Notes: generated from the sequence alone by a model not told the origin. Positions 352 to 52,745 are shown, counted from the first letter of the stretch. The stretch is 64,000 bases of DNA from an uncultured Gammaproteobacteria bacterium (GCA_964489145.1 CAZAXL010000005.1:7255-71254); one strand, 5' to 3'. Translations and numbers: made by a program.

Positions 352-2160
352 TTAGTCCAATTTAATTTGTAAATTCCAGAAATGTGAGTACAGCGAATCC
401 TTTTTCTTGAGTAGGCTCTCATGAGTTCCCACTTCTTTTATTCGGCCGTGTTCCATAACCACAATTTTATCTGCTCTCATAATAGTTGAAAGCCTATGGG
501 CAACAATTATAGTGGTTTTTCCGGCACGAGCCTTCCAGAAAGCCTCCTGAATCAGCTTTTCGGATTCGCTATCAAGCTGGCTTGTAGCCTCGTCAAAAAC
601 AACAATATCGGGGTCACTTAAGATCATTCTTGCGATTGCCAATCTCTGTTTTTGGCCTCCGGAAAGCTTAACTCCGCGCTCGCCGACTTCGGTATCGTAT
701 TTTTTGGGCAAACTTTGGACAAAGTCATCAATATTGGCTATTTTTGCGGCCTCCCTGATTTCGGACAGCTTCGAGTGGTCTTTTCCATAGCCGATGTTAT
801 ATGCAATGGTGTTATTGAAAAGTATCGGTTCTTGGGGAACAATTCCAATAAACCCTCTTAAAGTATCTTTTGTAAAATCCTTAATATTTATGCCGTCAAT
901 CATAATACTGCCGGATGATAAGTCGAAAAATCTCATCAGAAGTTTGACCAAACTGGTTTTCCCGGATCCGCTTCGTCCAACAAGGGCCACAGACTGACCC
1001 TGGTCAATTTTTAGGTTAATCCCATCGATTGCATTTTTAACCCTATTTTTGTATGCGAATTTGACATTATTAAACGTCACTTCGCCATGAATATGACCAG
1101 GTCTTACCTCGGAGGTATATTCTCCCTTGTTTCCTGCGGGATAAACATGGCCGACCTTTATCGGCTTTTCCGGATCTTTTACGTCAATTTGATAATCTAA
1201 AAGTTCAAAATACTTCTTAATATCGGCAAGATTGGTCGATATCTCCCTAAGTCCATAAATTAGATCAAAAAGTTTGGGAAAGAACATACTTACGTAGCTG
1301 ATTATTAACACAAAATCTCCAATTCCAATGCCACCTGCCTTTATCAAATTTAAGGAAAAAGCCAGTACCAGAAAAATAGAAATGTTTACAAGGGAGCCAA
1401 CGCTCATGTCGATCATTCTGTAAGTCCAAAAATGTCTCCAAAGGAACCTTTTCCAGGTTTTGAATGTGTTTTTGAGACGGTTTTGTTCCCAGCCCTCCTT
1501 GGCAAAGAGCTTCACAGTCTCATAATTTATAAGGTTGTCGGTGATAATTCCCGATATTTGGTCTTCCCATTCGTTGAATTCGTTACGTGTTTTGATGTTG
1601 TAGCCGGCCAAATATTTAGTAGCTACCAGGGTTAGCAGGAAGGAGCCTACAAATATAAGGATGAACCTGTAGTCGATTTGGATGAAAAAGTAGCCCATGA
1701 CGGTAAATCCAATGACAATTTCCCACATTCTTTGGTTGAGCCGGTCATAAAGACCCCAAAAAGCATTATCTCCGCGTTTGAAAGCACTAATTAAAGCTCC
1801 GGTGCTTTTTCCGGAATGGAAGGAAAAATCCAATTCCTGAACGTACTTAAATATCGCTCTTCTAATATCAATAGATGTATCTATAGCGACAATATCACCC
1901 AAAAGATATTTGAGGTTGGCAAATATAAGACCGGCAAACTGGGTGGCAATATAGATTAGGATCAACTTATAAAGGTAGTCAAGGTTGCCATCCTGCAGGG
2001 CATTTACAAACAGCTTGAAAAAATAGGGAGTAATGAGTTCAAACACGTAGGCAAAGGTGGTGGCAATCATTGCCAGGATAAACCACCACTTATGTTTCCA
2101 AATAAACGAATAAAATCTTCTGATAATTTTTAACATTTTTATAATTTCACAAGACGCCAC
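352..2160 (-). CDS. ABC exporter, fused permease + ATP-binding domains (MsbA/ABCB-type)
   Basis: 602 aa. N-terminal 6-TM region, Walker A 'GRSGSGKTS', ABC signature 'LSGGQKQRLAIARM', Walker B 'IVVFDEATS'. Confidence 0.85.
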   Translation of the reverse strand: MASCEIIKMLKIIRRFYSFIWKHKWWFILAMIATTFAYVFELITPYFFKLFVNALQDGNLDYLYKLILIYIATQFAGLIFANLKYLLGDIVAIDTSIDIRRAIFKYVQELDFSFHSGKSTGALISAFKRGDNAFWGLYDRLNQRMWEIVIGFTVMGYFFIQIDYRFILIFVGSFLLTLVATKYLAGYNIKTRNEFNEWEDQISGIITDNLINYETVKLFAKEGWEQNRLKNTFKTWKRFLWRHFWTYRMIDMSVGSLVNISIFLVLAFSLNLIKAGGIGIGDFVLIISYVSMFFPKLFDLIYGLREISTNLADIKKYFELLDYQIDVKDPEKPIKVGHVYPAGNKGEYTSEVRPGHIHGEVTFNNVKFAYKNRVKNAIDGINLKIDQGQSVALVGRSGSGKTSLVKLLMRFFDLSSGSIMIDGINIKDFTKDTLRGFIGIVPQEPILFNNTIAYNIGYGKDHSKLSEIREAAKIANIDDFVQSLPKKYDTEVGERGVKLSGGQKQRLAIARMILSDPDIVVFDEATSQLDSESEKLIQEAFWKARAGKTTIIVAHRLSTIMRADKIVVMEHGRIKEVGTHESLLKKKDSLYSHFWNLQIKLD

Positions 2161-2348
2161 AAAACCCTTTTCGACAAGCTCAGAGCTATAGCCTTACGGG
2201 GTTGTTTTGGCGGCGAAACCCAATTATAAGCTCAACTTAAGTTGATATTCAAGAAGTACTTTATGCATACCAAAGATCTAGCCTTGCAGGTAGAGATTTT
2301 TAAGCCAGTTTGTGCTACAATATACATACTTTCAAAAAGTTTACTTCC

Positions 2349-3233
2349 ATGCGAAAACTAATTGGTTTGCTATTTGCTATAGTCTTGGTATTGGCCGTGT
2401 CAGGCTCGTTGCCTGTAGTGGCTGTGACTTCCAGTCCAGTTCCGTCTCCCACACCAACCGCAACCCTAGAACCTACTCCCATTGCTCCTCCAGTTGATAT
2501 TACCCAAAAAAGTATGGAATCTCTGGGTCCTTTGGAAAGACTTTTGGAAAGTCAGGAGTTAGGGTCTGTTTGGCCATTTAACCCTGTTAAATATGCCATA
2601 AGAGGGGCCATTGATGCCGGAGTTCCTGCAAATACACTAGTCCTTTTGCTTCTTCTGCCGATTGTTACTTTTGTTATAGCTTTTTCGCGTAATGTTGTGG
2701 GTATCAGAGGATTTGGTATCTTCCTACCTGCGGCTCTTTCTGTCGTGTTTGTGGCCACAGGTCCGGTTGTGGGAATTGGGCTTTTTTTGGTGATTGTTGC
2801 AGTCTCAACTCTTGTTCGTATGATACTTCGCAAACTGAAAGTAAAACTCCAATATCTCCCGAGAATGTCATTTATTTTTTGGGCAGTGGTTTTTGCTGTC
2901 TTGGGGGTATTGTTCTTAGCGCCAGTCCTAAATTTTCCGTCTCTTGCCAACGTTTCAATCTTTGCCGTACTTGTCCTGATTCTTCTGGCAGAAGAGTTTA
3001 GCCGGGTTCAGCTTGGAAAAAGTGCCAAAACGGCAGCCAACCTTACTTTTGAAACATTAATTTTGTCTTTAATTTCCTATCTTTTCCTTACACTCCATCC
3101 ACTAAGGGAGTACGTGCTTCTAAGACCCGAGATTTCCTTAATCTCAGTTGCAATAGCCGACCTGGTGCTCGGAAAATACACCGGACTTAGGGTTATGGAA
3201 TTTTATCGTTTTAGAAAACTTATACGAAGTTAA
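2349..3233 (+). CDS. Polytopic (about 7 TM) membrane protein with Pro/Thr-rich extracytoplasmic N-terminus, 7TM-transglutaminase-associated-like
   Basis: Signal/TM 'MRKLIGLLFAIVLVLAV', then 'SSPVPSPTPTATLEPTPIAPP', then multiple hydrophobic helices. Immediately upstream of the ATP-grasp genes. The ORF track starts at 2310; the internal Met at 2349 is more plausible. Confidence 0.45.
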   Translation: MRKLIGLLFAIVLVLAVSGSLPVVAVTSSPVPSPTPTATLEPTPIAPPVDITQKSMESLGPLERLLESQELGSVWPFNPVKYAIRGAIDAGVPANTLVLLLLLPIVTFVIAFSRNVVGIRGFGIFLPAALSVVFVATGPVVGIGLFLVIVAVSTLVRMILRKLKVKLQYLPRMSFIFWAVVFAVLGVLFLAPVLNFPSLANVSIFAVLVLILLAEEFSRVQLGKSAKTAANLTFETLILSLISYLFLTLHPLREYVLLRPEISLISVAIADLVLGKYTGLRVMEFYRFRKLIRS

Positions 3234-3252
3234 ATATTAAAAGCTCTCACTT

Positions 3253-4545
3253 ATGAAAGTCTCATCTATTCTTGGTCTAAATGCCCGTACTCAACTTTTT
3301 GCGTACAAGTACAATACCAAACGTGGCAAAAATATTGCTGATAGCAAGATTCAGTCAGCCAGGGTGCTTAAAAAGGCAAAAGTAGCTCGTCCTAAAATTT
3401 ATAAAAAATTTATCGATCCCAGGCAAGTTATGGAATTTGACTGGAATGCCCTTCCACCCAAATTTGCCTTAAAGCCCAGCCGTGGTATGGGGGGGGAGGG
3501 AATTATAGTTGTAAAAAGAAGACTTAAAGATGGGGGATGGTTAACTACTCAAAAAGAGAGAATAAAGGTCGATGATCTCAAACTCCACACACTGGATATT
3601 TTGGAAGGAGCCTATTCGATGGGAAACGTTCCTGACGTTGCCTTTATACAGGAATATATAGGGCGTGCTAAAGTCTTCCGAAGGTGGGCATATCGCGGAA
3701 CTCCTGATATACGTATTATTATTTTTAATAAAATTCCGGTGATGGCGATGCTCAGGCTTCCCACTAAAGAATCCGGTGGACGTGCCAATTTACATCAGGG
3801 GGCAATTGGGGTTGGGGTTGATATTGCTACAGGGATTACAACAAAAGCCATTTGGCATGGAGAGGAAATTGTGTTCAAACCGGGGACAGAGAGGAAGCTT
3901 CGGGGAATAAAAATACCCGGTTGGAATTTGATTTTGGAGACAGCTATCAAAGCGCAGGAGGTATCTCATTTGGGCTACTTGGGAGTAGACATTGTAATTC
4001 ACCCCGAAAAAGGCCCAATGATATTGGAACTTAATGCCCAGCCAGGGCTTCAAATACAGCTTGCAAATGGAGAGGGTCTTAAAAAAAGACTTGAAAGGGT
4101 GGAAGACCTTGAAGTTACTGATGCTGAACATGGAATCAGGATTGCAAGGGCTCTTTTTGCGGGTAGGTTTGAAAATAGAAAAGCTTTAGAGGAGGGAATT
4201 AAAACAATCAAAAATGATGAAGTAATTAAAATAGTACTTCCCAACAAGCGAAGGGTTGAAGTTATGGCCAAGGTCGATACAGGAGCATGGAGAAGCTCAA
4301 TAGATAAAACTTTTGCAGAGAATAATGGTCTTTTGCAAAAAGATAATATTCTTTGGACAAAAGTTTTTAAAAGCGCTTTAGGATCCGAGGAAAGGGCGGT
4401 TATTAATATTAGTTTTTACTTGGCGGGAAGACGGATTAATACAATAGCATCGGTATCAAACAGAAAAGGTTTGAAAAAGATCTTTATTATTGGACGACGT
4501 GACCTTCAGGGGTTTTTAGTTAAAGTAGACGATGTTGCAAAATAA
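3253..4545 (+). CDS. ATP-grasp amidoligase (alpha-L-glutamate-ligase/RimK-related) fused to C-terminal retropepsin-like aspartyl-protease domain
   Basis: 430 aa. ATP-grasp core 'KPSRGMGGEGIIVV...YIGR...ILELNAQPG'. C-terminal 'KVDTGAWRSSID' is a D-T/S-G-A aspartyl-protease motif. Confidence 0.7.
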   Translation: MKVSSILGLNARTQLFAYKYNTKRGKNIADSKIQSARVLKKAKVARPKIYKKFIDPRQVMEFDWNALPPKFALKPSRGMGGEGIIVVKRRLKDGGWLTTQKERIKVDDLKLHTLDILEGAYSMGNVPDVAFIQEYIGRAKVFRRWAYRGTPDIRIIIFNKIPVMAMLRLPTKESGGRANLHQGAIGVGVDIATGITTKAIWHGEEIVFKPGTERKLRGIKIPGWNLILETAIKAQEVSHLGYLGVDIVIHPEKGPMILELNAQPGLQIQLANGEGLKKRLERVEDLEVTDAEHGIRIARALFAGRFENRKALEEGIKTIKNDEVIKIVLPNKRRVEVMAKVDTGAWRSSIDKTFAENNGLLQKDNILWTKVFKSALGSEERAVINISFYLAGRRINTIASVSNRKGLKKIFIIGRRDLQGFLVKVDDVAK

Positions 4546-5470
4546 AAATAGGCAAGAAATTATGAAAAAAATATTAATTTTAGTAGGAGTGATGGGACCT
4601 AAAAAAGAAGTTCTTGTTCAAGATATTGCCTCAAGAATTGGTAAAGATACAGATATTACTTTGGCGGAATTTTCGGATTTGTATTTTTCCATTTCGGACA
4701 AGAATATTTATGTCGAGATCGCAGGGACGCCAATTACCAATTTTGATTTGGTTTATTTCAGACGGGCAGGGGGAGGTTTTTCAATTGTTGCTGCTACACT
4801 TGCCACCTGTCTTAAAGCAAAAAACATCAAGTTTATAGATTCTTCGTGGGGTGAAATAGGGCCCTTAGGAAGTAAGTTTACGTCTTTGGTAAAACTCTGC
4901 GTAGAAGGGCTTCCGATAATTAAAAGTATCTATGTAAGGCAAAAACAAATAAATAAATATAACGAGAGGATTGTCAAAGAATTGGGTCTTCCACTGGTAG
5001 CAAAAGAGCTTTCAATGCAAAAGGGAAAAGGGGTATATAAGATAGAATCTATCCTGGATTTTGCAAAACTTCCGGCAAAATCTTCAAGCGATTCGGATAA
5101 TCAGTTTCTTTTTCAAGAATATAAAAATTTGGGAGACGAATACAGACTATTGGTTTTAGGACGAAAGGTTCGTGTTTGGGAGAAAAAGATTTTAACTGTC
5201 AACGGCGAATTTCGCCACAACGTTTCTTTGGGTGCCAGAGAAGAATTTTTGGATATAGAAAAAATCCCAGATGACCTTGCGAAGATTGCAGAAGATGCGG
5301 CTATTAAGTTAAATTTACAAATAGCAGGAGTTGATGTTGCGGCAGATAAAAATACCGGTAAATACTATCTGATTGAAGTTAATAGAGGGCCGGGATTTAC
5401 TTACGACACTGAAGTGTCACCCGAGATGGATGAAATTGCTAAATTTTTAAAAGAGGAAACGGAAAAATAA
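4532..5470 (+). CDS. RimK-like ATP-grasp ligase
   Basis: 312 aa. 'LPLVAKELSMQKGKGVYKI', 'YRLLVLGRKVRVWEKK', 'IAGVDVAADKNTGKYYLIEVNRGPGF' match the RimK/GSH-synthetase-like ATP-grasp fold. Overlaps the upstream gene by 14 nt. Confidence 0.7.
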   Translation: MLQNKNRQEIMKKILILVGVMGPKKEVLVQDIASRIGKDTDITLAEFSDLYFSISDKNIYVEIAGTPITNFDLVYFRRAGGGFSIVAATLATCLKAKNIKFIDSSWGEIGPLGSKFTSLVKLCVEGLPIIKSIYVRQKQINKYNERIVKELGLPLVAKELSMQKGKGVYKIESILDFAKLPAKSSSDSDNQFLFQEYKNLGDEYRLLVLGRKVRVWEKKILTVNGEFRHNVSLGAREEFLDIEKIPDDLAKIAEDAAIKLNLQIAGVDVAADKNTGKYYLIEVNRGPGFTYDTEVSPEMDEIAKFLKEETEK

Positions 5471-5477
5471 CATTTAA

Positions 5478-6428
5478 ATGAAACAAATTAAAATCGGGAT
5501 AATGTTTTCCAAAGATTTTACAGGGAATGAACCACTTAGCCATATTGTGGTTAAGCTTCCTGTTTATAAGAGGTTTCTTGAACTTTGCCAGGCGGAAGGT
5601 TGGAAAGTATATGTCTTAACCCGCAAAACTTATGTTGGCAACGGAACTTTTAAAGGCGCTTGGCATTTTGATAATGGAAAATTCTTTAAAGTTTTAGATC
5701 CAGTCAAAATCGATTTAGTATATGACAGGTCGGGTGGGGTAATGTTACCGCCGTCTGGGGATGAAAGTTTGATTTGGGTTAACAGGAGAGACTTTAAGCT
5801 TTTAGCATGGGACAAATGGGCAGCCTTCAATATCATTGGTGAATACATGCCACAAACTTTTATTATTGAGGACAGAAAGAAGCTGTCAAAAATTCTCACT
5901 CAAATTAAAAGCGATTGTGTAGTTCTTAAGCCACTTAACGGACTCAAAGGAATCGGAATTTTTATCGGACCAAAAAAAGAAGCACTGAATTTTAAATTTA
6001 ACGAAAGGTACAACCGTTATATTGCTCAGGGGTTTGTAGACACGGGAAGTGGAATCCCCGGCATTACTTTGGGGCTACATGACCTCCGAATTGTGATAGT
6101 AAATGGCAAACCGGTATGGTGTCATGTTAGAGTTCCGGCTGATGGAAGTCTTTTGGCAAACGCTGCACAGGGGGGAAATATTACAGAAATAGATTACGAT
6201 AAAATTCCGGAATCTATCAAAAAAATTGTTGGTAATATTACAACATTTTTTTCATGGAAATATGATAACCCAATTTATAGTTTGGATTTTGGGGTTGGAA
6301 AAAACGGCAAACCCTACATTTTTGAAATAAATGACCAAATGGGTTTTCCAAAATGGGAGATGGATAAAAAAGATATGTTTTTACAGGAACTTGTAGAGAA
6401 TTTTAAGACAAAGCTTCAAAGGAGCTAA
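5478..6428 (+). CDS. ATP-grasp family ligase (RimK/YheC-D-like)
   Basis: 316 aa. 'VVLKPLNGLKGIGIFI', 'GFVDTGSG', 'LRIVIVNGKPVWCHVR', 'YIFEINDQMGFP' match the ATP-grasp C-terminal half. Confidence 0.6.
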   Translation: MKQIKIGIMFSKDFTGNEPLSHIVVKLPVYKRFLELCQAEGWKVYVLTRKTYVGNGTFKGAWHFDNGKFFKVLDPVKIDLVYDRSGGVMLPPSGDESLIWVNRRDFKLLAWDKWAAFNIIGEYMPQTFIIEDRKKLSKILTQIKSDCVVLKPLNGLKGIGIFIGPKKEALNFKFNERYNRYIAQGFVDTGSGIPGITLGLHDLRIVIVNGKPVWCHVRVPADGSLLANAAQGGNITEIDYDKIPESIKKIVGNITTFFSWKYDNPIYSLDFGVGKNGKPYIFEINDQMGFPKWEMDKKDMFLQELVENFKTKLQRS

Positions 6429-9911: not shown

Positions 9912-10540
9912 TAAACTTTCTGAATTTGTAGAAAATCAAGCTCAACCGGTGTTTCGCGGCCGAAAATTGAAACCAAAACTTTGACTTTACCTTTTTCCTC
10001 ATCAATTTCATGGATTGTTCCAAGAAAATCCGAAAAAGGACCGTCGACGATTTTAATAGCCTCACCAACACTAAATTTAGTCTTAAATCTGGGAGCGGGA
10101 GAGCTAATAAATTTCTGGATGTTTGCAACTTCAGCATCGGAAAGAGGGGTGGGTTTATTTCCTGCTCCTACAAATCCTGTAATTCCGGCAGTTGTCCTGA
10201 CGGCAAGCCAAGTCGGATCATCCAAAATCATCTTTACAAGAAGATATCCCGGAAAGATTTTTTCCTTGATGGTTGCTTTTTTACCACTTCTGATAATAAC
10301 TCTGTCTTGTGTCGGAACCAACATTTCAAAAACCCTACCTTCCAGGTTCATGGTTTCAACTCTCTGGCGGAGGGTGTCCATGACACGTACCTCATGGCCC
10401 GAAGAGGTATGAACCACATACCACTTTGCTTTAGGATCGGTTGTTTGGGCAAGGATCATGTGGCCCTGGATCTTTTTATGTCCGATACCTCTTTCTGCTA
10501 CTCCTGCAACTGTTTCTTGCTGTTTTGTGTCTTCGTTCAT
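9911..10540 (-). CDS. nusG: Transcription termination/antitermination factor NusG
   Basis: NGN 'KWYVVHTSSGHE', 'IFPGYLLVKM', KOW 'FSVGEAIKIVDGPFSDFLGTIHEID'. Confidence 0.9.
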   Translation of the reverse strand: MNEDTKQQETVAGVAERGIGHKKIQGHMILAQTTDPKAKWYVVHTSSGHEVRVMDTLRQRVETMNLEGRVFEMLVPTQDRVIIRSGKKATIKEKIFPGYLLVKMILDDPTWLAVRTTAGITGFVGAGNKPTPLSDAEVANIQKFISSPAPRFKTKFSVGEAIKIVDGPFSDFLGTIHEIDEEKGKVKVLVSIFGRETPVELDFLQIQKV

Positions 10541-10548
10541 AGTTATGT

Positions 10549-10734
10549 TTATTTAGTCAATATTCTTGTCAAAACTGTTGTGAACAAATAATCGAGTCCT
10601 CCTACGTAAAATCCAACAATTACCGAAACCAAAAGGACGATACTCGTAAGTCTGACGACTTCATTTTTCTTTGGCCAGGTAACTTTGGAAAGTTCACTTC
10701 TTACTTCTGAAAAGAAAGTAACGACCGATTTCAT
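10549..10734 (-). CDS. secE: Preprotein translocase subunit SecE
   Basis: 61 aa. 'FFSEVRSELSKVTWPKKNEVVRLTSIVL' plus one TM. Upstream of nusG. Confidence 0.8.
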   Translation of the reverse strand: MKSVVTFFSEVRSELSKVTWPKKNEVVRLTSIVLLVSVIVGFYVGGLDYLFTTVLTRILTK

Positions 10735-12137: not shown

Positions 12138-13145
12138 ATGTCTAAAAAAGTGGCACTAATTACAGGAATTACCGGCCAGGACGGGAGTTACCTCGCAGAA
12201 CTTCTTCTTAAGAAAGATTATGTTGTTACAGGGATTGTGAGAAAAACCAGTAATATGGCTTATGCCAACATTTCCCATATTCAAGAAGAGTTAAATTTGA
12301 TTCAGGCGGATTTACTGGACCCGATTTCAATTCGTGAGGCGTTGCAAAAATCTAAACCCGATGAAGTTTATAATCTGGCGTCTCAAAGTCACCCCGCGGA
12401 AAGCTTCAGACAACCGATTCATACAGCAGAGATTACCGCAATTGGTGCCCACAGAGTGTTGGACGCAACTCTGGATGTTGTTCCAAAATCAAGATTCTAT
12501 CAAGCCAGCAGCAGCGAAATGTTCGGGTGGGTGAGAGAAATTCCTCAAAACGAAGAGACACCATTTAATCCGGCCAATCCCTATGCGGCTTCAAAGCTTT
12601 ATGCTCATGCCATGACCAAAATATATAGGGAAAGCTATAAAATGTTCGCTTCAAACGGAATTTTATTTAATCACGAATCTCCCCGAAGACACCTTGGTTT
12701 TGTAACCCAAAAAGTGACATACGCTGCAGCCTGCGCAAAACTTGGAATTAAAAGTTCTGAACATCTCAATGAAGAAGGTGAGCCGATTGTCAAAAACGGA
12801 AAAGTGGCTCTTGGAAATCTCCAGGCAAAACGCGATTGGGGATTTGCCGGAGATTATGTTGAAGCCATGTGGCTTATACTGCAGCAGGACAAACCGGACG
12901 ATTTCGTAATCGGAACCGGGGAAACCCACACAATTCAGGAACTTTGTGAGGAATCATATAGCTATGTGGGACTTAACTGGAAAGATCATGTTGTAGTTGA
13001 TGATAGATTTATTCGTCCGACAGAAACGGGGCCATTGGTTGGTGACCCGACAAAGGCAAAGAAAGTGTTGGGTTGGACTCCGAAAACGACTTTTAAAGAA
13101 CTGGTTCACTTGATGGTTAATGCACAAATTGCAAGATTAAAGTAA
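12138..13145 (+). CDS. gmd: GDP-mannose 4,6-dehydratase
   Basis: 'ALITGITGQDGSYLAELLL', 'YAASKLYAH', 'NHESPRR'. Confidence 0.9.
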   Translation: MSKKVALITGITGQDGSYLAELLLKKDYVVTGIVRKTSNMAYANISHIQEELNLIQADLLDPISIREALQKSKPDEVYNLASQSHPAESFRQPIHTAEITAIGAHRVLDATLDVVPKSRFYQASSSEMFGWVREIPQNEETPFNPANPYAASKLYAHAMTKIYRESYKMFASNGILFNHESPRRHLGFVTQKVTYAAACAKLGIKSSEHLNEEGEPIVKNGKVALGNLQAKRDWGFAGDYVEAMWLILQQDKPDDFVIGTGETHTIQELCEESYSYVGLNWKDHVVVDDRFIRPTETGPLVGDPTKAKKVLGWTPKTTFKELVHLMVNAQIARLK

Positions 13146-13568
13146 TTCCATCTTCTTAATTATTTCTGATGTGGAGGGGGATTTAATTTTTGATATTTCA
13201 ACAACTTTGGCTCCGGCTATTTTTGCCTGTTCCTGCTTTTTGTTAAGAATTGGATCGCTTTTTGTTACTGCAATTATTGCAGGACGGGTTTTAACTATAA
13301 GTTTTAAATAATCCCTATCCGTCATTTTATCTTTTAAGATTATTACTTGATCAACAAACTTTAGTGATTTAAGAATTTCCTTTCTTTGTTTTTGTGAATG
13401 GATGGGCCGCCCTTCACCCTTTAGTACCCTTATTCTTTTATCCGATTCTATGGCAACAACCAAGTAATCTCCTAAAGATTTTGCCTTTTTCAAAAAATAG
13501 ATATGTCCGTAGTGGAGGATATCAAAACACCCGCCGGTCAAAATTACTTTAATTTTTGATTTTGTCAT
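13137..13568 (-). CDS. Cytidylyltransferase-family nucleotidyltransferase (HldE domain II / TagD-like)
   Basis: 'ILTGGCFDILHYGHIYFLKKAKSLGDYLVVAIESD...LKGEGRP'. Confidence 0.7.
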   Translation of the reverse strand: MTKSKIKVILTGGCFDILHYGHIYFLKKAKSLGDYLVVAIESDKRIRVLKGEGRPIHSQKQRKEILKSLKFVDQVIILKDKMTDRDYLKLIVKTRPAIIAVTKSDPILNKKQEQAKIAGAKVVEISKIKSPSTSEIIKKMELL

Positions 13569-14199
13569 ATGTGTCCACAGCGAATTTTACGGCCAAATCA
13601 ACGGTCTCATCAAGTCTGCTGTCAAGATTTTCTATAAGGGTGGCTTTCTTTTGAAGTATATCCAAATAAATTTGATCTTGATCGTCACGGACTTTGTATT
13701 CTGCCGGGTCATATTTATCAAGATCTCTTATTTTTCTTCTTTCGGTAATAACTTCCTTTGGTGCAGTTACAAAAAGCACAATTGTATGATCCTGAAGCAG
13801 GTGTACCTTTTCAGGAAAAATTCTTTGGAAAAATTTACCCGAAGCAACTTCAGCCGCGCGGGAAGGGTCAATTCTCCAAACTAAATTTTCACCGGCCAGA
13901 AGCCTCTCAATCTCGATCTTAGGAGTTGCTTTATTTGATGTTCCATATTTTGTGATTGGTTCAACAAGTTCGTCATCCTTGGCCATTTTTTGAAGTTGAG
14001 CACTACTTACAAAATGATATTGAATTCCGTCTGTCTCGCCGGGTCGGGGAGGACGGTCCGTACAAGTAACCACTTTTTTAAGGTTAAATTTTTGGACAAG
14101 GGGATTTTTCAAAAATTCATCCATGACAGAATCCTTTCCGGCGCCGGATGCGCCAGTAAATATGATTAATACCCCGATTTCCACAACAAGATTATACAC
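13549..14199 (-). CDS. gmk: Guanylate kinase
   Basis: P-loop 'TGASGAGKDS', 'TDRPPRPGETDGIQYHFVS', 'YGTS'. Confidence 0.75.
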   Translation of the reverse strand: MYNLVVEIGVLIIFTGASGAGKDSVMDEFLKNPLVQKFNLKKVVTCTDRPPRPGETDGIQYHFVSSAQLQKMAKDDELVEPITKYGTSNKATPKIEIERLLAGENLVWRIDPSRAAEVASGKFFQRIFPEKVHLLQDHTIVLFVTAPKEVITERRKIRDLDKYDPAEYKVRDDQDQIYLDILQKKATLIENLDSRLDETVDLAVKFAVDTYDKIKN

Positions 14200-14241
14200 C
14201 AGCTTCTATTTTTTCTTTTTACTATTTGTTAATATATATTT

Positions 14242-15318
14242 ATGCCCACTGCCAAAAACGAAGACGAAGCGCAAGTAAAAAAAACCTCCTCAAAAGAAAA
14301 GATTAAACTTAATATCGACAAAGAAACACTTAAAAAGTTCAGACTTGTGGTAGTGGCCTACTCAAGCGTTCAAAGAGAACATTTTGCTACAAAGGACGCC
14401 TATGAAGCCGAGATTGAAGTGGAAGAGAGAGCCATTGAAGTTTCCGAAGAAATTAGAAAATTAGGTGTTCCGGTCAGGACTCTTCCCGGAGATCAATACT
14501 TTTATACAAATCTGCTGGTAGATAAGCCCGACTTGGTTGTTAATCTTGTTGACACACTTAAAGGGCGGGATCAGTTGCAGCCTTCAGTACCTGCCGCTCT
14601 TGAGTTGGCAAATATTCCCTATACAGGCGCAGGAATGGAGGGGCTTATCATTGGGAATAACAGAAATCTCACAAAAAGACTTCTTATGGCTTACGACATT
14701 CCAACACCTCCATTCCAGTTTATTAGACGTGCCGGAACCAATATCGATGAAGATTTAGGGGTTCCTCTGATAGTGAAACTTAACGAGGGCGGGGGAAGCG
14801 TGGGAATTAATAACAACGCAGTCAAAGAAACCGAAAGAGCTGCAAAACTTAGGGCAAATAATATGATTTCCACATATCATTTCCCTGTAATTGTTGAGAA
14901 GTTTGTGGATGGTCCGGAAGTAACGGTTGTTGTTTTTGACGATGGAGTGAAACGCCACGTCTTTATGGCTCAGAAAAAGTTTGGCATAAAGCCGGATGGT
15001 AAGCATGAATTTACGAGTATTGAGTCATATAACAGTTGGAAAGCTTATAAATATCTCCCGGTAGACGAAAATAATAAGTTTGAGATTACAAAACTTGCAG
15101 TTAGGGCTTTTGGAGGGCTTCAACATAAAGATTATGCTAAATTTGATGTACGGGTTGATGCTGACACAGGAATCCCATATTTTACGGATAGCAATCCCAA
15201 TACAGCCTTTGGGCCGGATAGGGGTCTTCCTATGACGGAGGTTTTGGCTATGAATGGGGTTGAGTTCTCCGACGTCTTGGCCAGTCTGCTTTCAAAATAC
15301 GCCAAAAATCTTTCTTAG
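14242..15318 (+). CDS. D-Ala-D-Ala-ligase-like ATP-grasp enzyme
   Basis: 358 aa. 'VNLVDTLKG', 'IPYTGAG', 'LIVKLNEGGGSVGI', 'YAKFDVRVDADTGIPYFTDSNPNTAFG' is Ddl-family topology. Confidence 0.7.
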   Translation: MPTAKNEDEAQVKKTSSKEKIKLNIDKETLKKFRLVVVAYSSVQREHFATKDAYEAEIEVEERAIEVSEEIRKLGVPVRTLPGDQYFYTNLLVDKPDLVVNLVDTLKGRDQLQPSVPAALELANIPYTGAGMEGLIIGNNRNLTKRLLMAYDIPTPPFQFIRRAGTNIDEDLGVPLIVKLNEGGGSVGINNNAVKETERAAKLRANNMISTYHFPVIVEKFVDGPEVTVVVFDDGVKRHVFMAQKKFGIKPDGKHEFTSIESYNSWKAYKYLPVDENNKFEITKLAVRAFGGLQHKDYAKFDVRVDADTGIPYFTDSNPNTAFGPDRGLPMTEVLAMNGVEFSDVLASLLSKYAKNLS

Positions 15319-15364
15319 CATACACCTGGACAAATCCCAGTTTGAGTCGTAAAATAGACCGATT

Positions 15365-16024
15365 ATGGAACTCGAGAAAAACATTAAAACCAGGAAATTG
15401 CTTCAAAGGCTTCTTAAGCTTGAGGACAATGTTGTTGGCAAGCCTTTTCCGGGCATGAAGCGTGTCAGGCAAATTTCCAGCTATCACTGTGGCCCGGCCG
15501 TTATTGTGGAATTGTTTTCATTTTTGGGAAAAAATATTTCGCAAATTGCAATTGTTAGGTCTTTGAGAGCCAAAAACAAAATCAGACAGTTGGGTCTTAC
15601 CATTCACGACCTGGCTCGTGCCACCAATATCCTGGGTAAAAAGGAGGTTGTCTTTTGGTGGAAACACCGATCTGCAATCAATGACATCTCTTTGGCTATA
15701 AATAAATATGGCTATCCGGTTGGGGTGGAATGGCAAGGCGTCTTTTACGAAGATGAAGATGAAGACAATGGGCATTATGCGGTTATTACTAAAGTTGATA
15801 AGAAAGCCAATTATTTGAGGATTTGTGACTCCTATTCCGATTTTGCCGGAGTGGACAGAAGATTTCGAATCAAAGATTTTGAGAAAAGATGGTGGGATGT
15901 AAACGAAGTAAAAATCTCAGGAAGGACGAAAACAAGAAAAATTAAGGATATAAGAATGATGTTTGTGATTACTCCAAAGGGCGAAACCTGGCCCAAAAAA
16001 CTTCATATGGTCAAAGCTTTATAA
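15365..16024 (+). CDS. Papain-like (C39/BtrH_N-like) cysteine peptidase/acyltransferase
   Basis: 'QISSYHCGPAVIV' gives Gln-x5-Cys. A later 'NGHYAVITKVD' supplies the His/Asp. Nested between two ATP-grasp genes. Confidence 0.45.
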   Translation: MELEKNIKTRKLLQRLLKLEDNVVGKPFPGMKRVRQISSYHCGPAVIVELFSFLGKNISQIAIVRSLRAKNKIRQLGLTIHDLARATNILGKKEVVFWWKHRSAINDISLAINKYGYPVGVEWQGVFYEDEDEDNGHYAVITKVDKKANYLRICDSYSDFAGVDRRFRIKDFEKRWWDVNEVKISGRTKTRKIKDIRMMFVITPKGETWPKKLHMVKAL

Positions 16025-16053
16025 AACTGTTAGATTATTCTTTAGTATACTAA

Positions 16054-17088
16054 ATGAACGTTGCTCTCACTTATAATGTCAAGAGAAATAAACCTTCAGT
16101 TGGTTTAGAAAAGCAGATTGATATTGAGTTTGATACTCCCCAAGTCACCCAGGCGGAAAAAGAGGCAATTGAAAGTTTTGGTCACAAAGCTTTTCTGGTG
16201 GAGGCCGACGAGAATGCTTTTCTAAAATTAAAAAAGTTAAAAGGAAAAATTGATATTGTTTTTAATGTAGCCGAAGGCCTTTGGGGGGAAGCTCGGGAAA
16301 CCCAAATTCCTATGATTTGTGAGATTTTAAGAATTCCTTATACCCATTCAGGTCCGACTACACACACAATTTCTCTCGATAAGTCTTTTACGAAATTGGT
16401 TTTACATGGGGCCAATGGAATAAATGTTCCCGATTCCCGTGTAGTTAGGGGTAGGGATTATATTATTCCGGATAGTTTAAAATTTCCTCTAATAATAAAG
16501 CCGAACTCTGAGGGATCCAGTAAGGGGGTAATGGATAAAAATGTGGTCAGAAACAGAAAAGATCTGAAAAGTAGAATTGAAGTAACATCCGAAAATTTTG
16601 CCAAGGAAGTTTTGGTTGAGGAGTATATAGAAGGCCGGGAATTTACAGTCGCAATTATTGGTAATGGAAACCCCAGAGTTTTACCGATTATTGAACAGAA
16701 GTTCGATTTCTTACCCAAGGGGATGAATAAAATTGCCAGTTTTGAACTTAAATGGCAATATGAAGATTCTTTGAGAGATTTGCACGACGCTTATGATTGT
16801 CCGGCGAAGATAGATAAAAAACTTGAGGAGGAAATAGAGAATACATCGAGAGAGATATTCAAGCTTTTAGACGTTCGGGACTGTGCCAGAATTGATTATA
16901 GGTTAGATCAAAATGGCAAGCTTTTCTTTTTGGAGATAAACACGCTTCCGGGAATTAATCCAAGTCCTGACGAAATTTCCTATTTTCCTATCGCGGCAAG
17001 AACTGCAGGAATGAGCTTTACAGAAATGGTGGGGGAGATTTTGAATCTTGCGTGTGAAAGATATGGAATTAAGTTCGACAGATCCTAG
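16054..17088 (+). CDS. D-Ala-D-Ala-ligase-like ATP-grasp enzyme
   Basis: 344 aa. 'VFNVAEGLWGE', 'LIIKPNSEGSSKGV', 'EEYIEGREFTVAIIG', 'ARIDYRLDQNGKLFFLEINTLPGI'. Confidence 0.75.
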   Translation: MNVALTYNVKRNKPSVGLEKQIDIEFDTPQVTQAEKEAIESFGHKAFLVEADENAFLKLKKLKGKIDIVFNVAEGLWGEARETQIPMICEILRIPYTHSGPTTHTISLDKSFTKLVLHGANGINVPDSRVVRGRDYIIPDSLKFPLIIKPNSEGSSKGVMDKNVVRNRKDLKSRIEVTSENFAKEVLVEEYIEGREFTVAIIGNGNPRVLPIIEQKFDFLPKGMNKIASFELKWQYEDSLRDLHDAYDCPAKIDKKLEEEIENTSREIFKLLDVRDCARIDYRLDQNGKLFFLEINTLPGINPSPDEISYFPIAARTAGMSFTEMVGEILNLACERYGIKFDRS

Positions 17089-17235
17089 TATATAAACTTC
17101 AAATGGCAGGCTTTAGTATCCCAGCTTCGGACAATTTAGCACAAAGTAAGCTCGTTTGAAATAGATAGAATTAACCAGTTTCTTAACCCTCAACCAGCAA
17201 TTGCTTTCAACATATTAAAAAGTTAAAATTCCGTT

Positions 17236-17787
17236 ATGGCTGAAAGACTTGCTGAAAGGATAAACGAAATTGCTTCAGAATATCCAACTTCGCCCGTTGC
17301 ACCAGAATTTATAAGTAGAACCAAAGAAGGTGAATTAACTAGAGATGAAAATCCATATTCCCATTTTTGTGTTTATTTTGCGGGTTTTGACCGCGAAGCA
17401 GGAAAAGTCTTTATTGGCCATCATAAGAAATCAGGATTGTGGCTTTTTAATGGTGGGCATATAGACAAGGGAGAAACACCCGAAGAAGCCTTAGAAAGGG
17501 AGATGGGTGAAGAATGGGGCGTAAAAATTGATTTACAAAGTATTGGTAAGCCAAAATTGCTGACAATAACTCCAATTCAACATCCAACAATAAAATGTAA
17601 GCGACATTTTGATATTTGGTATTTTATTCCTCTCTCAGAGATAGATTTTAAGCCTGACCAAGCCTTATTAGATACGGAGTTTTATACAACCGACTGGAAA
17701 GGTATAGAAGATGCTAAAGCTTTGATTATCGACATGGCTACTCTTAAAGGAATCTCAGAATTTGAAAAGATTTTTAGTAAGAAATAA
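17236..17787 (+). CDS. NUDIX hydrolase
   Basis: Nudix box 'GGHIDKGETPEEALEREMGEEWGV'. Confidence 0.8.
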   Translation: MAERLAERINEIASEYPTSPVAPEFISRTKEGELTRDENPYSHFCVYFAGFDREAGKVFIGHHKKSGLWLFNGGHIDKGETPEEALEREMGEEWGVKIDLQSIGKPKLLTITPIQHPTIKCKRHFDIWYFIPLSEIDFKPDQALLDTEFYTTDWKGIEDAKALIIDMATLKGISEFEKIFSKK

Positions 17788-17907
17788 CTTCAATGTTCAA
17801 TTCCTCTCAGGGTTTAGGATGGTCTGATATAGTTTTTTGAGGCTAAATAATTTACAGGAAGTCGTAAATGATGTTAGAACTTATTACGCTCTTCTTCAAG
17901 AGCCTTG

Positions 17908-18448: not shown

Positions 18449-18522
18449 TGGCAGGGGCGGAGGGAATTGAACCCCCATTAACGGTTTTGGAGACCGCTGT
18501 TCTGCCGTTTAACTACGCCCCT
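18449..18522 (-). tRNA. tRNA-Trp (anticodon CCA), CCA encoded
   Basis: Cloverleaf read by eye. Acceptor AGGGGCG/CGCCCCT, anticodon loop CTCCAAA, T-loop TTCAATT. Confidence 0.85.
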
Positions 18523-19799: not shown

Positions 19800-19851
19800 G
19801 GGGATATTCTAGCAAATTATATGTGAATAGTGAATAGTGAATAGTAATTTG
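19800..19851 (-). promoter_or_regulatory. Putative rpmG promoter: three tandem 'TATTCAC' heptamers + TATAAT
   Basis: Minus sense 'TATTCACTATTCACTATTCACATATAATTTGCTAGAATATCCCCATG'. Confidence 0.4.
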
Positions 19852-19923
19852 AGCCTGAGGTGAGGATTGAACTCACGACCCCGTACTTACCAAGTACGTG
19901 CTCTACCACTGAGCTACCCAGGC
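19852..19923 (-). tRNA. tRNA-Thr (anticodon GGT)
   Basis: GCCTGGG/CTCAGGC acceptor, D-arm GCTCAGTGGTAGAGC, anticodon loop TTGGTAA, T-arm GTGAGTTCAATCCTCAC. Confidence 0.85.
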
Positions 19924-19983
19924 GAGTCACCGAACCTGGGTAGAGAAAGTGGCAAGATTTTCTTACCACTGAGCTACCCAGGC
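19924..19983 (-). repeat. Self-complementary partial copy of the tRNA-Thr(GGT) 5' half directly upstream of the tRNA
   Basis: A 22-nt copy 'GCCTGGGTAGCTCAGTGGTAAG' plus its complement 'CTACCCAGG' form a long hairpin abutting the mature 5' end. Confidence 0.6.
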
Positions 19984-19995
19984 AAATAAAACAAG

Positions 19996-20080
19996 TGCTG
20001 AGGTCAGGATTCGAACCTGAGTAGCCCTTTCGGACGCGAGATTTACAGTCTCGTGCGTTTGACCGCTCCGCCACCTCAGC
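19996..20080 (-). tRNA. tRNA-Tyr (anticodon GTA), long variable arm
   Basis: Anticodon stem-loop CGAGA-CTGTAAA-TCTCG, T-arm TCAGGTTCGAATCCTGA, 85 nt. Confidence 0.85.
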
Positions 20081-20084
20081 GCTG

Positions 20085-20156
20085 AGCCGACGAGAGGATT
20101 CGAACCTCTGACTTGCTGTTTACAAAACAGCTACTCTACCACTGAGTTACGCCGGC
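20085..20156 (-). tRNA. tRNA-Thr (anticodon TGT)
   Basis: GCCGGCG acceptor, D-arm ACTCAGTGGTAGAGT, anticodon loop TTTGTAA, T-arm AGAGGTTCGAATCCTCT. Only 4 nt from tRNA-Tyr. Confidence 0.8.
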
Positions 20157-51758: not shown

Positions 51759-52745
51759 TCATGGGTTTTTGGGTTTATAATACACACCACGGGTAGAACC
51801 CATTTTTTGGATAAAACCTTCTTTTGCCAGTCTCATTAAATCGTAGCGCAGAGTTCTTTCGTTAACATTTTTAAATCTCCTTCTGATGCTGTCGAAGTTG
51901 GTCATTTTTTGGTCATTTATAAGCTGTAATATTTCACCCCTTCTGGGTAAAAGCGCGTCGTAGCTTTCAACTTTTTGTTTTTTGAGCACCAAATCTTTTG
52001 CCTCTGTGGCCGCCTCGGCAATCAATTCGAGCATAAATTCCAGGTAATTTGTAGTATCGCGCTCCGGCTCTTCAAGCATTTTGTAATAAGTCTCGCGTTT
52101 TTTATCGACCTTTTCCTCAAATGGTAAAATTCCTTTAAGTCCATAATCATTTTTTGTCAGCACCATCAAGATAAAAAGTCTTCCGACTCTGCCACTGCCA
52201 TCCGTAAATGGATGTATTTTTTCAAAAACAAAGTGAGAAAGAAGTGCCTTAACGGGAATAAGGGTTTCTTTATTGCTGTTGGCATATTTCAAAAGTCTTT
52301 CAATCAGCTTGGGTATTAAACTAGGAGGGGGAGCATGATAGACAACAGTCCCTGCAGTTGTGAATATACCTTCATGCTTCTTTCTGAATTTTCCCAATTC
52401 TTCATATTCAATCCCTTTCATAACGATTGAGTGCAAAGTCAAAATGTCTTTTACGGAAATATCTTTTTTGTTCCTTTCCTGAATCCAATTTATTGCTTTT
52501 AAGATATTTTCTATTTCAACTCTCTTTTTGTCTTTTGAGGAAAGCCTTGAATAATCATCCAGGAGTGTGGGATTACCCTCAATTCTTGCCGAAAAAACGG
52601 AACTTTTCAAAGTTGACTTGCGCCTGATGTTTAATTCAACTTCGGGGGGAATTGATATATTTTCAACAATCTCTTTGGCAGCCTCTATTTTAGATAGAAG
52701 TTTAGAGGTATTAGTATTGAGAAAATATTTTGGAGGAATCAACAT
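51759..52745 (-). CDS. Fic-family protein (class II, internal inhibitory helix) with C-terminal wHTH
   Basis: Fic motif 'HPFTDGSGRVGR', N-terminal 'SARIEGN' of the [S/T]xxxE[G/N] type, C-terminal 'LMRLAKEGFI'. Confidence 0.8.
   Translation of the reverse strand: MLIPPKYFLNTNTSKLLSKIEAAKEIVENISIPPEVELNIRRKSTLKSSVFSARIEGNPTLLDDYSRLSSKDKKRVEIENILKAINWIQERNKKDISVKDILTLHSIVMKGIEYEELGKFRKKHEGIFTTAGTVVYHAPPPSLIPKLIERLLKYANSNKETLIPVKALLSHFVFEKIHPFTDGSGRVGRLFILMVLTKNDYGLKGILPFEEKVDKKRETYYKMLEEPERDTTNYLEFMLELIAEAATEAKDLVLKKQKVESYDALLPRRGEILQLINDQKMTNFDSIRRRFKNVNERTLRYDLMRLAKEGFIQKMGSTRGVYYKPKNP

Follow-up and report, generated by a model that had tools for sequence, protein, structure and literature searches.

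A widespread two-gene module pairing a Ddl-family ATP-grasp ligase with a C39-like cysteine enzyme in Microgenomates and Chloroflexi

Introduction

In the butirosin (BtrJ/BtrH) and closthioamide (CtaD/CtaG) systems, an ATP-grasp amide ligase works with a CA-clan Cys-His-Asp enzyme able to transfer (PMC7183216). Systems of the BtrJ/CtaD type need carrier proteins, and a peptidyl carrier protein (PCP) is found in 95% of their loci, often with a pyridoxal phosphate (PLP) decarboxylase (PMC7183216). In glutathionylspermidine synthetase/amidase (GspSA) and in glutathione synthetase with phytochelatin synthase (PCS), an ATP-dependent amide ligase is coupled, sometimes by fusion, to a papain-clan Cys amidase or transpeptidase, which in those systems acts on the ligase's own product. 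Furthermore, GNAT-fused C39-like (DUF3335/PF11814-type) peptidases beside ATP-grasp ligases have been predicted to be peptide-synthesis systems by Iyer et al. (2009; cited in PMC10318531) and are so far uncharacterised. In a stretch of 64,000 nucleotides deposited as DNA of an uncultured Gammaproteobacteria bacterium (GCA_964489145.1, CAZAXL010000005.1:7255-71254), which as a whole is called the window here, the gene of a C39-like Cys enzyme lies between the genes of two Ddl-family ATP-grasp ligases, referred to as ligase A and ligase B. The conserved unit is ligase A with the C39-like gene, a widespread, unannotated two-gene module with lineage-specific add-ons rather than a cluster for sugar tailoring, and a variant of the known ATP-grasp and papain-clan theme.

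The module resembles the BtrJ/BtrH and CtaD/CtaG pairs in joining an ATP-grasp amide ligase to a CA-clan enzyme, but its ligase belongs to a different family, its Cys enzyme has no BtrH_N match and its loci hold no conserved carrier. The model of the C39-like protein and the PCS-like protein Alr0975 can be superposed over 169 residues, whereas significant sequence membership in the PCS/GspSA groups is lacking, the GspSA amidase is a CHAP domain, and no thiol or polyamine genes lie near the module. The systems of Iyer et al., as far as they are described in the citing paper, share the same three domain types, including GNAT-C39 fusions in both orders beside an ATP-grasp gene; they differ in that the window protein matches PF03412/PF13529 and not PF11814, and in that its ligase is Ddl-type and not RimK-type. 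Unlike the C39 exporter domains of ComA and PCAT1, the module protein is stand-alone and predicted to be cytoplasmic, is accompanied by neither a transporter fusion nor a precursor peptide, and has the extra motifs EWQG, an acidic loop and WWD.

Results

Conservation of the A-C39 pair

The three genes at the centre of the locus are the following.

14242-15318, plus strand: ligase A, Ddl-family ATP-grasp, 358 aa (Dala_Dala_lig_C, 55.9 bits)
15365-16024, plus strand: C39-like Cys peptidase/transacylase, 219 aa (Peptidase_C39 PF03412, 25.1 bits; cutoff 22)
16054-17088, plus strand: ligase B, Ddl-family ATP-grasp, 344 aa (Dala_Dala_lig_C, 128 bits)

A genome collection scanned with a profile of the C39-like protein gave 80 loci, in 79 of which an A-type ligase gene lay immediately 5' of the C39-like gene on the same strand; the exception was at a contig end. 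In the reciprocal scan of metagenome contigs with A-specific motifs, the C39-like gene was downstream of A in 64 of the 66 loci with sufficient downstream sequence, and one of the two exceptions was a contig ending inside the gene. The adjacency, found in 143 of 146 informative loci from two phyla, is far beyond chance. Furthermore, a representative protein of 524 aa (P0392) carries the A and C39 domains in one chain. A preliminary description of the window had proposed a functional coupling of ligase and peptidase, which these counts and the fusion corroborate. It had also taken a ligase pair flanking the peptidase as the unit, and this view does not hold, B being present in 17 of the 160 loci scanned, mostly of Woesebacteria type. 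The gap between A and the C39-like gene was at most 60 bp in 61/64 loci, and overlapping genes were frequent; as read from this arrangement, the real unit is a two-gene A-C39 operon, predicted to be translationally coupled. B lay within 3.5 kb of A in all six contexts examined and, by its sequence and distribution, appears to be a lineage-restricted accessory, a near-canonical yet distinct Ddl-family enzyme.

About 140 loci besides the window, in Microgenomates and Chloroflexi, carry the A-C39 pair. Carriers in the genome scan were Woese-, Shapiro-, Gottesman- and Roizmanbacteria, Paceibacterota and, unexpectedly, many Anaerolineae/Chloroflexota. Across the 79 genome loci, ligase A was 54-90% identical to the window copy, with 80-92% identity within Woesebacteria and 54-65% to the Chloroflexi copies. 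In all-against-all clustering of about 1,300 neighbouring open reading frames (ORFs), the A and C39-like families were the only ones to span all three lineage groups, and no third cluster of at least 70 aa was conserved across lineages. No small ORF (18-110 aa) was conserved within 700 bp of the module, where only antisense shadows of neighbours and rpmG were seen. Module loci are thus free of a carrier protein and of a precursor peptide, although a carrier could be encoded elsewhere in the genome. The family is small: 366 clusters (50% identity) of 1.84 billion representatives reached E <= 1e-3. No viral copies were found in IMG/VR scanned with both profiles.

One locus (L054, 9340-10609) has tandem duplicated C39-like genes after A, and in a Chloroflexi locus (L043, 7531-8832) an IS605 OrfB/TnpB-type gene lies directly 5' of the module; both are consistent with mobility of the cassette between phyla. 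The idea of a defence system was dropped, as PADLOC gave no match for A, C39 or B.

Judged by its nearest homologues, the host appears to be a Woesebacteria-type bacterium of the candidate phyla radiation (CPR). Many module-bearing contigs are deposited as 'uncultured Gammaproteobacteria' or 'Pseudomonadales' (L011, L015, L019, L021, L038, L047 and others). Because their gene content and synteny match Microgenomates, these contigs probably carry mislabelled taxonomy of metagenome-assembled genomes.

Ligases A and B compared with canonical Ddl

Public annotation names both A and B D-alanine-D-alanine ligase. On the canonical Ddl models NF002378 (cutoff 243 bits) and TIGR01205 (cutoff 245.65), however, A scored 97.8 and 88.8 bits and B 189.5 and 160.3 bits, respectively. 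On the VanA-G models of NCBIfam, with cutoffs of 495-775 bits, A reached 26-38 bits and B at most 118. The best matches of an A profile in the PDB were all Ddl/VanA-type ligases (top E 5e-20), followed by L-amino-acid ligases and PurD. A formed its own deep clade in a neighbour-joining (NJ) tree and B was the sister of canonical Ddl, the three clades being separate; with three canonical Ddls included, the tree is indicative only. These results place both ligases outside canonical Ddl, as the preliminary description had implied, and neither A nor B is a canonical Ddl. The two had been described as paralogous, which is correct in that both are of the Ddl family, but they are distant paralogues with only about 25% identity and not a close pair.

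The shortfall of A and B does not reflect a general divergence of CPR proteins, because Shapirobacteria with A-C39 loci encode Ddls above the cutoff. The canonical CPR Ddls (282-287 aa) of the A-C39-bearing Shapirobacteria L041 and L049 scored 345 and 334 bits, past the NF002378 cutoff of 243, and keep every DdlB substrate residue compared. A true Ddl thus co-exists with the A-C39 pair in at least some carriers (Shapirobacteria).

Residues were compared with Escherichia coli DdlB, numbered as in the structural literature. A retains E15, E17 and V18 of subsite 1 and the Mg/ATP ligands, and differs by H63D, S150G, R255K and E270D; K215 is replaced by S or a gap, and S281/L282 are without conserved equivalents. 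B retains K97, K144, E148, S150, S151, E180, E187, K215, R255, D257, E270, N272, G276 and S281, with the substitutions H63E, Y216W and L282Y and with a position 15 that reads D or Q according to the register of the alignment. An omega-loop deletion seen in A in a MAFFT alignment was revised, HMMER aligning the invariant Y263 of A with Y216 of Ddl. The AlphaFold 2 model of A was poor (pLDDT 56; shallow alignment, 24 sequences at least 70% identical) and was left out of the fold and pocket work. The following motifs of A were located, all on the plus strand.

14401-14424, plus strand: YEAEIEVE
14542-14565, plus strand: NLVDTLKG
14776-14808, plus strand: KLNEGGGSVGI
14995-15030, plus strand: DGKHEFTSIESY
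15130-15147, plus strand: DYAKFD
15187-15216, plus strand: DSNPNTAFGP

The N-terminal tail of A (14242-14340) is Lys-rich and variable in length, and may be complementary in charge to the acidic loop of the C39-like protein. Downstream of B, a Nudix gene (window 17188-17858; ORF 17236-17787) has 89% nucleotide and 90% protein identity to a Nudix gene of loci L149-L155 (~10028-10582), where it lies 1.7 kb downstream of a GNAT-type module. In these loci the nucleotide identity of A reaches only 68%, and the remainder of the locus is unrelated to the window. The Nudix match could reflect recent transfer or a link to the module; the window protein also has a weak PADLOC PDC-S07 match.

The C39-like protein

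The preliminary description had noted a Gln-x5-Cys...His signature and called the 219-aa protein C39/BtrH_N-like. The signature is real: across 72 members from both phyla, Q36 was conserved in 97%, C42 and H137 in 100% and D155 in 99%. The EWQG and WWD motifs and an acidic loop abutting the catalytic His were likewise 97-100% conserved in the 72 sequences. As for the family, the C39 part stands, with PF03412 at 25.1 bits against a cutoff of 22, although PF13529 gave 18.3 bits, below its cutoff of 24; the BtrH_N part does not, as no match to BtrH_N (PF14399) was found in Pfam, nor one to PF11814. HMMER aligned the Q-x5-C-G-P-A motif with the ComA leader peptidase.

15470-15472, plus strand: Q36, oxyanion Gln of the catalytic set
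15488-15499, plus strand: C42-G-P-A, catalytic Cys motif
15728-15739, plus strand: EWQG, family-specific motif
15749-15778, plus strand: EDEDEDNGHY, acidic loop and His (H137 at 15773-15775)
15827-15829, plus strand: D155, of the catalytic set
15890-15898, plus strand: WWD, family-specific motif

Comparison of the modelled fold with known structures gave these scores.

PeiR, pseudomurein endoisopeptidase: 16.0
ComA peptidase domain: 15.8
Alr0975, phytochelatin-synthase-like: 15.3 (169 aligned residues, the longest)
PCAT1: 15.3
Bacillus anthracis C39-like protein: 15.1
CtaG, BtrH_N protein: 11.7

The model thus indicates a bona fide papain-fold Cys/His enzyme with the hallmarks of CA-clan C39, and both enzymes of the module look catalytically competent from their conserved residues. 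Two findings would have spoken against the preliminary description, a branching of both ligases within canonical Ddl and a middle protein devoid of a Cys/His dyad; neither was observed. No signal peptide or transmembrane segment was found in the C39-like protein, which is predicted to be soluble and cytoplasmic. Ligase A is likewise a soluble, cytoplasmic protein. The protein is stand-alone, with no ATP-binding cassette (ABC) exporter fused to it or conserved nearby. The phytochelatin synthase family PF05023 gave a weak match, below cutoff, in one homologue only. The acidic loop (15749-15766) is expanded in GNAT-fused forms.

Accessory enzymes and cell-wall genes at other loci

The pair has different partners in different lineages. 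In one sub-lineage, a GNAT (Acetyltransf_3) is fused N-terminally to the C39 domain and a second GNAT gene lies upstream of A; in other representatives, the same GNAT family is at the C-terminus of the C39 domain, and in the window and most loci GNAT is absent. GNAT-C39-like fusions have been noted earlier as possible peptide-ligase systems (PMC10318531). At locus L123, a different, third ATP-grasp gene overlaps the C39 stop codon. The accessory partners (B, GNAT and the third ATP-grasp) point to amide-bond chemistry on amino acids.

A MurF-like ligase gene precedes A in four Shapirobacteria loci. At L041, the murF stop overlaps the A start, alr is upstream of murF and the canonical ddl is divergent. 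A gene for a VanW and PG_binding_4 protein lies directly upstream of the module in three related loci (L054, L055 and L060), and a class A penicillin-binding protein (PBP) gene directly downstream in L039. In the window, MreB and PBP2 are encoded about 10 kb downstream of the module, and the host is therefore expected to make peptidoglycan. The earlier observation that mur genes are missing here holds for the 37 window ORFs scanned; no ddl was found elsewhere in the window, and about 8 kb of additional adjoining host sequence showed no cell-wall genes.

Sugar genes and other neighbours

All six ORFs of the preliminary description are present at their exact coordinates. The three upstream of ligase A are the following.

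12138-13145, plus strand: GDP-mannose-4,6-dehydratase family gene, gmd (GDP_Man_Dehyd PF16363, E 2.6e-114)
13137-13568, minus strand: small cytidylyltransferase-family gene (CTP_transf_like PF01467, E 4e-16)
13549-14199, minus strand: kinase-like P-loop protein (weak N-terminal guanylate-kinase match, PF00625 50.8 bits)

The first gene is probably gmd, with a full-length alignment of 382 bits to TIGR01472 (equivalog cutoff 415). The cytidylyltransferase resembles rfaE domain II (115 bits, under the cutoff of 181). The identification of the kinase-like gene as gmk could not be established, as the protein falls under the guanylate kinase equivalogs (TIGR03263, 67 bits against 160; NF011325, 77 against 263), whose models align well only over its N-terminal P-loop half. 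Because neither protein reaches any equivalog cutoff, the pair could be something other than gmk and an HldE-like gene, for example enzymes of CoA or cofactor steps. The two genes overlap by 20 bp in a minus-strand operon (13137..14199), the start of which is separated from that of ligase A by a 42-bp AT-rich spacer, with divergent transcription. The three genes had been placed directly upstream of the ligases, which is right for the strand of gmd but not for the other two, which are transcribed away from A. The minus-strand operon is probably a neighbour of the module and not a member. A scan for promoters and terminators over 11.8-18.6 kb gave counts at or below shuffle expectation.

To place the proposed linkage to sugar-nucleotide genes, loci whose upstream sequence extended to 4 kb or more were grouped by the identity of A to the window copy.

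Close loci: gmd 22/34, cytidylyltransferase 27/34
Intermediate loci: gmd 6/39, cytidylyltransferase 1/39
Distant loci: gmd 0/20, cytidylyltransferase 0/20

Sugar genes were also absent from all Chloroflexi loci, and in relatives gmd is separated from A by a major facilitator superfamily gene and others. The linkage thus stands inside Woesebacteria-type synteny and is lost in distant loci; the sugar genes track that synteny and not the module and are mostly bystanders, gmd (12138-13145) being a regional synteny neighbour outside the core. A residual sugar link may exist for B specifically, resting on locus L006 (GCA_030647365.1, 3497-9622), where a gmd orthologue (76% identical), preceded by an FdtA-like gene, overlaps the start of the B orthologue; GNAT genes follow. 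At this locus C39 is missing after the A-like ligase, and its place is taken by an unrelated 442-aa protein and a 178-aa M42-like fragment. For the 442-aa protein, neither Pfam nor the C39 profile gave a match, and the PDB gave none that was meaningful.

The window has another ATP-grasp system, unrelated to the module, at 352-6428, which is predicted to be an Iyer/Aravind-type peptide-ligase cluster.

352-2160, minus strand: ABC exporter
2310-3233: 7TM_transglut protein
3253-4545: ATPgrasp_ST (E 1e-65)
4532-5470: RimK-like ATP-grasp
5478-6428: GSH-S/RimK-like ATP-grasp

A tRNA-Trp gene (18449-18522) and a tRNA Thr-Tyr-Thr cluster (19851-20156) lie downstream of the module, and a Fic-domain protein is encoded at 51759-52745.

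Discussion

The genes and residues described above suggest the following scheme for the module. Ligase A would activate a carboxylate as an acyl-phosphate with ATP and then form an amide with an amine. As A keeps E15/E17/V18 of Ddl subsite 1, its donor would probably be a small amino acid whose alpha-amine is free; with S150, K215, R255 and S281 of subsite 2 replaced, its acceptor would be other than D-Ala. The C39-like Cys-His-Asp enzyme would form a thioester acyl-enzyme on the product of A or on a competing compound, and would release it by hydrolysis (editing or turnover) or by acyl transfer to another amine (transpeptidation). Depending on the lineage, B, GNAT or the third ATP-grasp may add a further residue or acyl group. 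Because lineages add another amide-forming enzyme, the product would most likely be a short non-ribosomal peptide or an amino-acyl amide, and the most likely arena would be the cytoplasmic peptide stage of peptidoglycan-precursor synthesis, beside the normal Ddl. We give about an even chance to the proposal that A and C39 may form a unit that makes a short peptide and then trims or transfers it.

For the placement in cell-wall-precursor synthesis itself, with a logic that would resemble VanA/VanX, we estimate roughly one chance in three. As in that system, a peptidase accompanies a Ddl paralogue whose site for the second substrate is remodelled, the A-C39 pair is found in genomes that keep a canonical Ddl, the cassette is self-contained, occurs in variable contexts and is shared between phyla, and one clade of module loci has a VanW-family neighbour. 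The peptidase here, however, is a papain-fold Cys enzyme and not a zinc enzyme like VanX/VanY; VanH, VanT, VanX, VanY and VanRS are missing among the annotated neighbours, although no explicit search for VanX and VanY was made; and A, which scores no more than 26-38 bits on the VanA-G models, has K215 and R255 replaced as well. Several points weigh against the proposed make-and-trim unit and its cell-wall setting. If A formed and C39 hydrolysed one and the same bond, the result would be a futile cycle, so the specificities of A and C39 would have to differ. A channelled two-step enzyme would account for the fusion and for the strict 1:1 coupling no less well than an antagonistic pair. Cell-wall neighbours are confined to three or four small clades, and the other flanking genes are mutually unrelated (ion exchanger, P-type ATPase, CarD, DEAD helicase, tRNA synthetase and IS605 TnpB). 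The pocket assignments for A come from sequence alignment only and depend on the register around the omega-loop.

The main rival, which we consider rather unlikely, is a channelled two-step enzyme whose product, a small-molecule peptide or an amide of an amino acid (a thiol, osmolyte or polyamine conjugate), would have nothing to do with the cell wall. The Cys enzyme could take A's amide product as its activated acyl donor for transpeptidation, as phytochelatin synthase does with glutathione, or it could be an amidase/glutaminase subunit delivering amine or ammonia to the ATP-grasp site, as CarA does for CarB. Such channelling would suit the strict 1:1 co-occurrence, the gene overlaps and the natural fusion, the loss from A of residues that bind the carboxylate of a second amino acid, the self-contained module in varied genomic contexts and the invariant acidic loop beside the catalytic His, which suggests a cationic substrate. 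On the other hand, the phytochelatin match is below cutoff, no thiol-metabolism or polyamine genes are nearby, and the murF, alr and ddl contexts point elsewhere; to our knowledge, no papain-fold amidotransferase subunit of an ATP-grasp enzyme has been described, which also counts against this rival. We see a quite small probability that the pair would represent a new type of machine for forming peptides independently of a carrier. One version has two steps: A would make a sacrificial amide that the C39-type enzyme converts into a thioester for re-ligation, that is, phytochelatin-synthase logic on a Ddl-type ligase; in the other, the papain-fold protein would be an amidotransferase subunit feeding a nucleophile to the ATP-grasp. 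Another rival is reversible modification of a protein tail, in which A would add amino acids (RimK/TTL-like), the papain-fold enzyme remove them (vasohibin/RimB-like) and a RimJ/RimL-type GNAT acetylate the same target. Antagonism of ligase and peptidase is known for RimK and TTL systems, the fused GNAT is of the Acetyltransf_3 family, to which RimJ and RimL belong, conservation of A is very high, and the Woesebacteria module lies in a region rich in ribosomal-protein genes. This context is nevertheless the synteny of one lineage only, no candidate target gene is conserved, and enzymes of the Ddl family ligate small molecules in closed active sites, with A keeping the alpha-amine ligand E15; we thus regard tail modification as improbable.

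The linkage to sugar genes had suggested a butirosin/closthioamide-type pathway, in which an aminoacyl or dipeptidyl unit assembled by the ATP-grasp would be handed by a BtrH-type papain-fold transferase to a sugar or glycan supplied by the adjacent sugar-nucleotide genes. Partnerships of papain-fold transacylases with ATP-grasp enzymes are established (PMC7183216), gmd and the cytidylyltransferase are nearby in Woesebacteria-type loci, and in L006 the gmd orthologue after the FdtA-like gene overlaps the B start. However, a PCP is found in 95% of CtaD/BtrJ-type loci (PMC7183216), whereas the module has no carrier protein and no conserved third gene of any kind. The ligases belong to the Ddl family, BtrH_N has no Pfam match, the C39, Pei and PCS folds outscore CtaG, the cytidylyltransferase and kinase-like genes are on the opposite strand, and none of the 20 distant loci and no Chloroflexi locus carries the sugar genes. 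Because neither a carrier protein nor a precursor peptide is conserved, mechanisms of the butirosin type and of RiPPs (peptides made on the ribosome and then modified post-translationally) are both unlikely, and the former has in our estimate a slim chance. In a RiPP or graspetide cluster, the ATP-grasp would modify a ribosomal precursor and C39 would remove its double-glycine leader. The fold and the Q-x5-C motif do align with the ComA and PCAT1 leader peptidases, and, like microviridin clusters, the window contains two ATP-grasp genes; yet the core holds one ligase and not two, the ligases are Ddl-type and not the RimK-type of graspetide clusters, no small ORF near the module is conserved across lineages and no ABC exporter is fused or conserved, so that a RiPP origin is barely credible. 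It is very improbable that A or B is the housekeeping D-Ala-D-Ala ligase and the peptidase an unrelated neighbour. The public annotation of both as D-alanine-D-alanine ligase, the retention in B of almost all Ddl catalytic residues and the lack of a further ddl in the window would fit this explanation, but A and B are under the cutoff and in separate clades, A-C39-bearing Shapirobacteria also encode a textbook Ddl past the curated cutoff, B is in only 17/160 loci, and the explanation leaves aside the A-C39 adjacency in 143/146 informative loci of two phyla and the fusion protein.

CPR genomes are tiny, about 1 Mb. That they keep the pair, with A highly conserved, suggests strong selection on a previously undescribed function. 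The annotation of A and B as D-alanine-D-alanine ligase leads to inflated reconstructions of the peptidoglycan pathway in these uncultured lineages. With two genes and soluble products, the small module is directly testable in vitro. If either carrier-free version is true, it would be an unrecognised step in cell-envelope or small-peptide biosynthesis of CPR and Anaerolineae, and a channelled ligase-transpeptidase would open a new way of forming amide bonds that is non-ribosomal and needs no carrier. Editing or diversification of the peptidoglycan stem peptide by the pair, if it takes place, would matter for the cell-wall chemistry of a large group of uncultured bacteria and for how susceptible they are to antibiotics and lysins.

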